Assembly: GCA_047602425.1 (NCBI GenBank)
Contig: JASGHG010000001.1
Coordinates: forward strand, 1,600,001-1,664,000
Source of the DNA: Nibricoccus sp.
Lineage (GTDB): Bacteria > Verrucomicrobiota > Verrucomicrobiia > Opitutales > Opitutaceae
Direction of reading: 5' to 3'
DNA: 64,000 bases
The translations under genes and the position numbers were made by a program. Positions 21,096-23,754 of this stretch are shown here, piece by piece. Numbering within the stretch: the first letter of the stretch is position 1; the number at the start of each line of letters is the position of its first letter. The notes under the pieces were generated by a model. That model saw nothing but the letters and a program-made list of their open reading frames with translations, was not told the origin of the DNA and did no database searches.

Positions 21096-22049
21096 ATGAA
21101 GCATTTCCTCAAAGAAACGGACCTGTCGTTGCGCGAAGCAGCGGCGGTCTTCGCGCAGGCCGCGAGCTTCAAGAAATCCCGCGGCCGGAAAACGGCGCCC
21201 GTGCTCAAAAATCAGACATGGGCCATGATTTTCTCGAAATCGAGTACGCGCACCCGAGTTTCCTTTGAGGTCGGCATCCATGAACTGGGCGGCAATCCGC
21301 TGTTTCTCAACAAGAACGACATCCAACTTGGCCGCGGTGAGACCATCGAGGACACCGCAAAAGTCCTTTCGCGTTACGTGCACGGCTTGGTCGTCCGCAC
21401 TTTCGATCACAATGACGTCGTCAAACTGGCCAACAGTTCATCGATTCCAGTGATCAACGCTCTCACTGATCTGCTGCATCCGTGCCAGATGTACTCCGAC
21501 GCGTTTACGCTGGCGGAACGTTGGGCCGGTCGGAGCAAAAATTTGCTCGGTTCGCTCAAGGGCAAAAAAATCGCGTTTGTCGGCGACACCGCCTGCAACA
21601 TGGCGAGTTCATGGGTCCTCGGCGCCAATTACTTCGGCATGAAGATTGCCGTCGCCGGTCCCAAAGGTTTTCGCCCCTCGCCTGCGTTCGATGCATTTTT
21701 GGCCACACAAGGATTCGAAGACGCCTACGAATTTACCACCGATCCGTACGAAGCCGTGCGTGGCGCCGATGTTGTCTATACGGACGTCTGGGTCAGCATG
21801 GGCAAAGAAGCCGAGTCGCAGCAGCGCTTAAAGCTCCTTCGTCCATATACGATCGATACAAAGATGTTTTCTGCGGCAAAAAAAGACGCGTTTTTCATGC
21901 ATTGCCTGCCGGCTTATGCGGGCAACGAAGCCACGCAGGAAGTCCTCGATCATCCGCGCTCGATCATCTTCGACCAGGCCGAAAACCGCCTCCACATGCA
22001 AAAGGCGATCATGGCCTTCCTCGCGAAAGCCGCGAAGTCGAAGCGTTGA
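21096..22049 (+). CDS. argF: Ornithine carbamoyltransferase
   Basis: STRTRVSF, HPCQ, DVWVSMG, HCLP, QAENRLH. Confidence 0.97.
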   Translation: MKHFLKETDLSLREAAAVFAQAASFKKSRGRKTAPVLKNQTWAMIFSKSSTRTRVSFEVGIHELGGNPLFLNKNDIQLGRGETIEDTAKVLSRYVHGLVVRTFDHNDVVKLANSSSIPVINALTDLLHPCQMYSDAFTLAERWAGRSKNLLGSLKGKKIAFVGDTACNMASSWVLGANYFGMKIAVAGPKGFRPSPAFDAFLATQGFEDAYEFTTDPYEAVRGADVVYTDVWVSMGKEAESQQRLKLLRPYTIDTKMFSAAKKDAFFMHCLPAYAGNEATQEVLDHPRSIIFDQAENRLHMQKAIMAFLAKAAKSKR

Positions 22050-22053
22050 GATT

Positions 22054-22508
22054 TTTTAACCGCGAATGGACGCGAATTAACGCGAATACTCCATGGCTGC
22101 GAACGATGTTCTGCTTCGGGATGAAGTGTTTCGCATCGTTGGTGCGGCGTTGGAGGTGATCAATTCGCTTGGTCACGGGCTACATGAGAAGCCGTATGAA
22201 AATGCGCTGGTGGTGGAATTTGGTTTGGCGAAAATACCCATTGAACAGCAGAAACGTTTTCCCGTGCTCTACAAAGGCGTGCAAGTGTCGGAGTACGTAC
22301 CCGACCTCATCGCGTTTGGTAGCGTGGTCGTGGACGCCAAGGTGGTCGACCGAATCACCGACCACGAACGCGGCCAGATGCTGAATTACCTCCGAATCAG
22401 CGGCCTAAAAGTTGGAGTACTCTTAAATTTCCAGCGCGCAAAGCTTGAGTGGGAGCGTGTAGTGTTGTCCGATCATTCGCGTTAATTCGCGTCCATTCGC
22501 GGTTAAAA
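22054..22508. mobile_element. Putative mobile cassette: GxxExxY gene bracketed by perfect 34-bp inverted repeats
   Basis: Left 22054-22087 TTTTAACCGCGAATGGACGCGAATTAACGCGAAT; right 22475-22508 is its exact reverse complement. Mobility is inferred. Confidence 0.6.
22093..22485 (+). CDS. GxxExxY protein (PD-(D/E)xK nuclease superfamily)
   Basis: GLHEKPY signature; PDL...DAK catalytic-like residues; QMLNYL; GVLLNF. Confidence 0.93.
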   Translation: MAANDVLLRDEVFRIVGAALEVINSLGHGLHEKPYENALVVEFGLAKIPIEQQKRFPVLYKGVQVSEYVPDLIAFGSVVVDAKVVDRITDHERGQMLNYLRISGLKVGVLLNFQRAKLEWERVVLSDHSR

Positions 22509-22527
22509 TTTTAAAATCCATTCCATT

Positions 22528-23754
22528 ATGAAAATCGTCCTCGCTTACTCCGGCGGACTCGACACGTCCGTCATCGTCAAGTGGCTCAAGGAAACATACG
22601 ACGCCGAAATCGTCACTTTCGCGACCGACGTCGGCCAGGAAGAGGAACTTCGTGGCCTCGATAAAAAAGCCAAGCGGACCGGCGCCTCTAAACACTACAC
22701 GCTCGATCTCGTCGAAGAATTTGCCCGCGACTTCATCTTCCCGATGATCCGCGCCAACGCTATTTACGAGGGCCAGTATTATCTCGGCACCTCGATCGCG
22801 CGTCCGCTCATCGCCAAAGCGCAGGTCGAAATCGCCCACAAGGAAAAAGCCGACACCGTCGCGCACGGCGCCACCGGCAAAGGCAACGACCAATGCCGCT
22901 TCGAGCTCACGTACATGGCGCTAGATCCAAAACTCCAGATTATTGCTCCATGGAAACTGGAAAACTATCGCGCTGAATTCCCCGGCCGCGCCGAGATGAT
23001 CGCCTACTGCGCAAAGCACAATATTCCCGTCGAAGCTTCGCTCAAGAAGCCATACTCGATGGACCGCAACCTTCTTCACATCTCCTACGAAGCCGGCATT
23101 CTCGAAGATCCGTGGTTCGACCCGACGACGAAGGAAAACAAGGGCATGTTCAAACTCTCCGTCTCGCCGGAAGACGCACCCGACAAACCCGAGTACGTCG
23201 AAATCGATTTCGAAAAAGGCAACGCCGTCGCGATCAACGGCAAGAAGCTCACGCCCGGCGCGCTGCTCAAAGCCCTCAACAAGCTCGGCGGCAAACATGG
23301 TATCGGCCGTGTTGACCTCGTGGAAAACCGTTTCGTCGGCATGAAGAGCCGTGGCGTGTACGAGACCCCCGGTGGCACGATCCTCATGCAGGCGCACCGC
23401 CAGGTGGAATCGCTCACGCTCGACCGCGAAGTGCTCCAACTCCGCGACAGCCTGATCCCGAAATACGCGCAACTCGTGTACAATGGTTTCTGGTTCGCAC
23501 CGGAACGCGAAGCGCTTCAAGCCCTCGTCGACGAAAGCCAGCGTTACGTCAGCGGCACGGTTCGGCTCAAGCTTTACAAAGGCAACATCATCACCTGCGG
23601 CCGCAAGTCGAAGTACTCCATGTACGACGACAAGATCGCGTCGATGGAAGGCGTGAAGAGCTGGTACAACCAGAGCGACGCCACCGGCTTCATCCGCCTC
23701 AACGGCCTGCGCCTCCGCGCCCGCAACCTCTCACAAGGCGGCCCGAAGATCTGA
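22528..23754 (+). CDS. argG: Argininosuccinate synthase
   Basis: [38 protein letters not shown]. Confidence 0.98.

Follow-up and report, generated by a model that had tools for sequence, protein, structure and literature searches.

A GxxExxY nuclease gene with periodic inverted arms at the argF-argG junction of Nibricoccus sp.: co-variation of residue 12 and the arm unit points to a probable self-recognising gene-plus-arms element

The argF-argG junction of Nibricoccus sp. carries a small gene of the GxxExxY family that is enclosed by two perfectly matched inverted arms. Across the family, the amino acid at position 12 varies together with the fifth base of the repeated arm unit, and from this comparison it appears very probable that the protein binds its own arms directly. 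The best explanation, to which we assign a probability of roughly 0.48, is that gene and arms together form a slow, promoterless, self-recognising DNA element that is moved rarely by its own nuclease with the help of host repair. Of these two parts, binding is much firmer than movement. GxxExxY genes are common, with 9005 cluster representatives at E<=0.001 and a gene in 72 of the 81 host-family genomes (it was not found in the remaining nine), yet they have no assigned function; in the available text of PMC3424549 the function of the family is given as Unknown.

Anatomy of the unit and of its protein

The window is a stretch of 64,000 nucleotides from contig JASGHG010000001.1, and the features of the unit within it are collected in Table 1. 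The initial annotation had described a 455-bp unit, and this description was confirmed. The arms are 34 nt long and 100% complementary, with 387 nt between them, and each contains three CGCGAAT units with a 10-bp period. The left arm begins 4 bp after the end of argF and argG starts 19 bp after the right arm, into which the TAA stop of the GxxExxY gene falls. The open reading frame scores 124.5 bits on TIGR04256 (cut-off 35) and 113.8 bits on PF13366 (cut-off 22).

Table 1. Features of the gene-plus-arms unit and its neighbours (positions in the window)
Feature	Position	Strand	Remark
argF (upstream host gene)	21096..22049	+	passes its NCBIfam cut-off
Left arm: T-run, AAC, three CGCGAAT units	22054..22087	+	likely three protein-binding sites, judging from the sequence
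CGCGAAT units of the left arm	22061-67, 22071-77, 22081-87	+	10-bp period
Mini-ORF M-D-A-N-stop, four codons, within the left arm	22066..22080	+	read from sequence
GxxExxY gene, 130 aa, PD-(D/E)xK fold	22093..22485	+	TIGR04256, PF13366, structure model
Val12 codon, N-terminal helix 9-26; residue coupled to base 5 in the arm unit (here Val with A, elsewhere Thr with G)	22126..22128	+	
Right arm, perfectly inverted copy of the left	22475..22508	-	
argG (downstream host gene)	22528..23754	+	passes its NCBIfam cut-off

No sigma-70 promoter-like site was found in positions 21900-22700. The argF transcript presumably carries the cassette, and the GxxExxY protein would then be expressed from host mRNA. 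The mini-ORF in the left arm may, judging by its position, aid the restart of ribosomes after argF. It is also possibly a by-product of the arm motif, because ATG is equally common in right arms. The GxxExxY gene of several relatives itself starts at an ATG located further along the arm.

The residues E32, D71, D81, K83, Q95, and Y99 are intact in this copy. Across 385 aligned sequences, K83 is conserved in 385, D71 in 384, and E32 in 381, and position 81 is either D or E. In the structure model (pLDDT 92.5), the first helix comprises residues 9-26. The best structural match is Cas4 SSO0001 (Z 8.0, rmsd 3.1, 98 aligned), and the other matches are restriction enzymes and lambda exonuclease. The modelled protein is a generic PD-(D/E)xK nuclease core; since no structure matched above Z 8.0, no specific structural relative is named. 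Sequence searches returned no match to the protein in the PDB at E 10, none in PADLOC at E 0.1, and, for the query used, no relative among viral contigs; Rfam likewise gave no match. Some longer proteins in the representative search (P0137, P0167, P0178, P0182, and P0194) contain GxxExxY-like stretches at least twice and up to 20 times.

Arms as a general feature of GxxExxY genes

The idea that inverted periodic repeats accompany GxxExxY genes in general was borne out when their flanks were extracted. An inverted-repeat score of at least 15 between the flanks was obtained for 167 of 194 loci from the host family and close homologues, for none of the shuffled flanks, and for 0 of 156 random small open reading frames of this genome. 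Two later locus sets gave inverted-repeat flanks in 63 of 88 and 47 of 80 cases. The Nibricoccus sp. genome itself encodes five GxxExxY genes, all with inverted periodic arms and with five different arm types. One paralogue (C1:4331872-4332165), whose match to the family model begins at position 18 and which has both of its CACGGAT arms, is likely decaying.

The arm consensus is AAC-CRCxyAT, three times over, and a single arm is not a tagged hairpin. For the comparisons below the arm unit is written C-R-C-x-y-A-z, with x as base 4 and y as base 5. The units follow each other with a period of one helical turn (10 nt) in this subfamily and of 8-9 nt in others. Fully complementary 30-nt cores were present in only 5 of 92 period-10 elements, and the perfect arms seen here are thus unusual.

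Repeat copies without the gene, which the initial annotation had proposed to count, were also found. This genome contains 64 arms, 51 of which lie between genes, compared with 0 in a 1.5-Mb shuffle. The gene-less copies occur as pairs and as solo arms dispersed across the genome, and are read as decayed or non-autonomous copies. Period-10 arms are present in 57 of the 72 host-family genomes that have a GxxExxY gene vs. 2 of the 9 that do not, and GAAT arms occur in 23 of the 26 genomes that contain a close homologue vs. 19 of the 55 that lack one; related genomes are not independent in either comparison.

At co-oriented junctions of this genome, 25 intergenic arms are of the right type and 15 of the left type, and many solo right arms lie 11-60 nt upstream of a start codon, as if retained for the downstream gene. 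A solo arm occupies the same position before the start codon in genome G004 (L393) and in this genome (C1:4317018); it is of the CGCGAAT type in one species and of the CGCTAAT type in the other, all three units having been switched. Arms can also enclose or alternate with hairpins in composite arrays (C1:4765779-4765948 and 5058847 in this genome, L402 in G002, L417-L427 in G003), and these hairpins we take to be GTAGG-type and REP-like.

The same arm layout surrounds four of five four-helix-bundle (TIGR02436) genes in this genome, which counts against the favoured explanation. TIGR02436 genes with 7-mer periodic inverted arms lie at operon junctions at C1:4322482, 624183, 4405390, and 3849089 of this genome, and one in genome G025 occupies the argF-argG junction itself (L028:1883-2248). 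To our knowledge, no catalytic role is known for four-helix-bundle genes, and their cassettes are a parallel system without a nuclease.

Co-variation of residue 12 with base 5 of the arm unit

The arm type tracks the protein tree, for which co-inheritance alone would suffice. Among 362 loci, 243 could be typed, and residue 12 was present in 242 of these. Thr12 occurred together with G at base 5 in 69 loci and with another base in a single one, whereas other residues were found with G in 23 loci and with other bases in 149. G was therefore present in 69 of 70 loci with Thr12 vs. 23 of 172 loci with other residues. In the independent-pair test described below, Thr12 was the best of 434 column-residue tests, and the runner-up, Ile16, lies one turn away in the same helix. 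The coupling is equal in both arms (187 of 204 units on the left, 187 of 198 on the right).

The Thr12-G rule was written down before two held-out sets were examined. In the first (45 typed of 88 loci), G accompanied Thr12 in 13/13 cases and other residues in 5/32. In the second (26 typed, non-duplicate loci of 80), the counts were 14/14 and 2/12, so that the pooled held-out sets gave 27/27 for Thr12 vs. 7/44 for the others. Of 22 close homologues, the 18 not flagged as previously used yielded 7/7 Thr proteins with G arms and 9/9 Val proteins with A arms. Several of these Thr loci probably belong to a single clade, and one of the Val loci may duplicate a locus of the training set. Exceptions to the rule were encountered among the same 18 homologues, as one Cys12 and one Ser12 protein have G arms.

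Shared ancestry was addressed with independent pairs. Over all branches, 16.1 pairs were concordant, 0 opposite, and 6.8 tied (p 3e-5), as counted with our own pairing script on a tree from which the N-terminal helix had been excluded; the trees are quick and FastTree trees. With only well-supported (starred) branches there were 7 pairs, 4.7 in the same and 0 in the opposite direction (p 0.06), and the starred branches of the first locus set gave 4.3 and 0 (p 0.125). A change of this kind can be followed in the argF-argG lineage of L076 and L077, where Val12 has become Thr and the units of both arms have become ..GAT.

An overlap at the DNA level between codon 12 and the arm was ruled out as the source of the coupling, since all four Thr codons are used and the codon lies a median of 32 nt from the arm. 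Other parts of the written prediction failed in the held-out loci: T at base 4 accompanied Gly12 in 2 of 9 cases and Thr12 in 2 of 27, and G at this base accompanied Val12 or Cys12 in 1 of 5. A coupling of Arg115 with G at base 2 was likewise unsupported. Weaker couplings at residues 106, 124, and 24 are not claimed, given 434 tests per base.

The change of residue 12 in step with base 5 argues that the protein likely reads its own arms. The original suggestion of a nuclease that recognises its own repeats thus gains comparative support, at the level of sequence co-variation.

Age, selection, and a possible host function

Within the genus (five genomes), the gene has a dN/dS of 0.03-0.07, and 53-75% of synonymous sites have changed, which is near saturation. 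In the 30-nt cores of the arms, 3 of 240 positions have changed. The cassette is present at argF-argG in all four congeners and in 28 of the 81 close-homologue loci. This copy is an old resident under strong purifying selection. The reading of the copy as a recent insertion had to be abandoned, as recent transposition is ruled out by the genus-wide retention and the purifying selection.

The alignment of the junction across relatives, which the initial annotation had proposed, did reveal empty as well as filled sites. Among 30 argG loci, 7 (including this one) carry the cassette at argF-argG and 11 have a short empty junction. The remainder comprise one lone arm, one gene-less pair of another type, three other genes, one four-helix-bundle gene with 7-mer arms, and six loci without argF. 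In one lineage (L067, L076, and L077) the unit is inverted at argF-argG. The copies of L076 and L077 are intact, with Thr12 and GAT arms, and show 11 synonymous and 2 replacement changes. L067 has a Val12 gene with GAAT arms and a changed GxxExxY motif, nested inside GAT-arm remnants.

The main rival explanation is that the protein is a domesticated host factor, which binds the arms and their dispersed copies on behalf of the host (for example, for operon tuning or repeat processing) and whose gene moves only incidentally. Domestication accounts better for the selection in place, because a purely selfish gene would hardly show so low a dN/dS unless it had re-invaded repeatedly, and the near-saturated synonymous sites point in the same direction. 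Furthermore, 7 of the 11 supported GxxExxY splits among 27 argF-argG loci agree with the host tree, the gene was encountered in only 7 plasmid records out of 72,556 and in none of the 50,697 phage records, and solo arms are retained at orthologous positions, once with all three units switched. On the other hand, the four deeper splits conflict with the host tree, and cassette and host distances correlate weakly (Mantel p 0.088). A host factor would also have to be reconciled with the nine host-family genomes in which no gene was found, the patchy sites, the frequent broken copies and remnants, and the swapping of cassette types at one junction. Taken together, we regard domestication as unlikely.

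DNA sites or an RNA stem

The initial annotation further proposed that the arms form a 34-bp duplex on the operon mRNA. This copy can fold into a 34-bp RNA stem (z -6.6), but the family as a whole shows little sign of selection for such a stem. Among 92 elements, mismatches between the arms affect 87 of 2116 cells at motif positions and 225 of 644 cells at free positions, and 121 of these 225 are unable to pair on either strand. G-U-type mismatches show no preference for the sense strand (72 sense vs. 82 antisense; 217 vs. 271 of 1067 for all types), and at the variable base of the middle unit the two arms do not match each other (52 vs. 51.5 of 92). Because the spacers often mismatch and a G-U bias is absent, the arms look like protein sites and not like a selected RNA stem. 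The simplest reading of the sequence pattern is that each end carries three protein sites, spaced by one helical turn, on double-stranded DNA. The probable substrate is each arm by itself in double-stranded form.

Spacer complementarity nevertheless exceeds that of permuted arms (208 vs. 188 of 368, p 0.001), also when the argF-argG clade is left out (144 vs. 130 of 268, p 0.015). The outer flanks have a small excess of complementarity too (p 0.005 without this clade). The excess could reflect RNA pairing or the copying of one arm from the other. This slight excess, together with the fixation of even the spacers within the genus (3 changes in 240 nt), leaves room for pairing.

An intervening sequence at the RNA level would make use of such pairing: the arms would pair on the operon mRNA and the stem would be cut by RNase III or by the protein itself reading paired RNA. 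A precedent is the intervening sequence in the 23S rRNA of Coxiella, which, as far as covered by the available text of PMC4990558, encodes a four-helix-bundle protein, ends in a 28-bp stem with heptamer repeats, and is a target of RNase III cleavage. In both cases a small ORF lies in the loop of terminal inverted repeats with short tandem units inside a host transcript, which for the GxxExxY gene is presumed. The four-helix-bundle cassettes with 7-mer arms at similar mRNA junctions, once at argF-argG (G025), provide a further link, and the stem of this copy, the strong co-orientation with the operon, and the spacer excess would all be expected. However, the GxxExxY protein has a different fold, the unit resides at an mRNA and not an rRNA junction, and its ORF is under purifying selection and not decaying. 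The missing sense-strand preference, the unmatched middle-unit base, the intact inverted copies of L076 and L077 at argF-argG, and the persistence of solo arms also speak against an RNA-level process, which we consider distinctly improbable.

Movement of the unit

The 81 close-homologue loci fall into 28 junction classes, from which slow relocation over long periods is read. Among 154 resolved loci, the gene shares the direction of both neighbours in 128 and opposes both in 10, as determined with a strand caller that was correct in 170 of 196 test genes. A comparison with the congeners showed that one junction of 8-12 nt is empty in this genome and filled in two others, without a target duplication; other junctions of the congeners hold different cassette types, gene-less pairs, or, at one junction, a solo arm. 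The statement that no clear target duplication is present holds for the family, as no tested length or offset gave duplications in more than 4 of 92 elements. Same-genome paralogues (242 pairs after removal of 4 duplicates) reach a best identity of 88%, and since they are never near-identical, no recent self-copying was caught.

Two recent, uniform bursts of gene-less arms, in genomes G002 and G086, were rejected as proof of GxxExxY activity, as the arms lie inside the repeats of other elements. MITEs with an arm pair directly inside their ends (G002 L440-L463, G086 L493-L512, and G003 L407) have 16-bp outer repeats starting with CC and 4-5 bp duplications. The burst in G002 has 24 matches, with the outer repeat and a 5-bp duplication in 8 of the 9 copies in which both ends were read, and this genome contains IS1380-type remnants below the cut-off. 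From their end sequence, the MITE ends are presumably IS1380-like. The outer terminal repeats and 4-5 bp duplications around the burst arms therefore indicate that another transposase moved them, and the bursts in G002 and G086 are read as passengers of IS-derived MITEs. In G076 and G085, 30 of 130 arms were viewed; the copies varied and did not form a uniform burst.

An addiction or defence module, in which a toxic nuclease would be restrained by binding its own arms and the arm types would be specificity groups, is very unlikely: same-genome paralogues mostly differ in arm type (five types for five genes here), the active site is intact, and the gene is selected in place, but there is no partner gene and no PADLOC match at E 0.1, the location is in housekeeping operons, and loss leaves simple remnants.

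For the self-recognising element that we favour, the following steps can be proposed. The nuclease would bind double-stranded DNA at both ends of its own unit, on all three repeats of each arm, and on rare occasions would cut close to the outer, AT-rich margins of the arms. Host repair could then copy or swap the unit into other gene junctions, or invert it. We put such movement, by cutting and host recombination and without target duplication, at slightly less than even odds.

Comparison with known systems

REPtrons and TIRtrons consist of RAYT or TIRYT (HUH Y1) genes with REP/REPIN or terminal inverted repeats, as set out in the available text of PMC5581495, PMC8266576, and PMC3733652. A domesticated role has been argued for RAYTs (PMC5581495, text available in part), and enzyme and repeat co-evolve in systems of this type (PMC8266576, likewise in part). 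The GxxExxY unit resembles them in several respects: inverted repeats flank a small gene and also lie scattered through the genome without it, inheritance is mostly vertical (with partly conflicting deep splits), duplication is low, and the gene is rare on plasmids. The apparent co-evolution of enzyme and repeat is a further likeness, which for GxxExxY consists of sequence co-variation only. In contrast, the enzyme is of the PD-(D/E)xK and not the HUH Y1 type according to its family and fold matches, the arms are three periodic units instead of GTAG/CGTC-tagged hairpins, and the gene is promoterless within operons, with no ssDNA-hairpin requirement seen. The analogy to RAYT/REPIN drawn in the initial annotation therefore holds for the inheritance pattern and the flanking and gene-less repeats, and fails for the enzyme and the repeat type.

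The ends of Tn7 and Mu contain repeated binding sites, and end-cutting can be performed by TnsA-type PD-(D/E)xK enzymes. The GxxExxY unit shares with them several inverted putative protein sites per end and a PD-(D/E)xK nuclease, but is without a DDE transposase, a target duplication, and near-identical copies in one genome. The last two points also separate it from classical IS elements and MITEs. Free-standing homing endonucleases are encoded by nuclease genes at gene junctions and spread via host repair. Similarly, the GxxExxY nuclease gene sits at a junction and has long been kept intact, and its spread would need host repair, whereas its specificity tracks its own arms and not one empty target, and 28 junction classes are occupied. 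By the criteria examined, the gene-plus-arms unit falls outside the IS, IVS, and homing-endonuclease classes, and it is an undescribed variant of nuclease-plus-cognate-repeat systems. No description of such a unit was found in the literature searched, which lay mostly outside subscription journals.

Significance

The recognition rule is the addition made here. The coupling of residue and base names a candidate substrate together with a single-residue test, and the function of this common family is therefore directly testable. It is conceivable, though rather doubtful, that the unit stands for a new minimal class of mobile elements. Their nuclease, 130 aa long and of restriction fold, would read bases through a residue code in its first helix and bind three phased sites per end. 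It would shift the unit from one operon junction to another with neither a transposase nor a target duplication, and in doing so would seed a large family of dispersed repeats. If the protein does move the unit, this would constitute a non-HUH, non-DDE route for the spread of short repeats in bacterial genomes, and the family would also offer a sequence-specific nuclease of very small size with naturally varying specificity.
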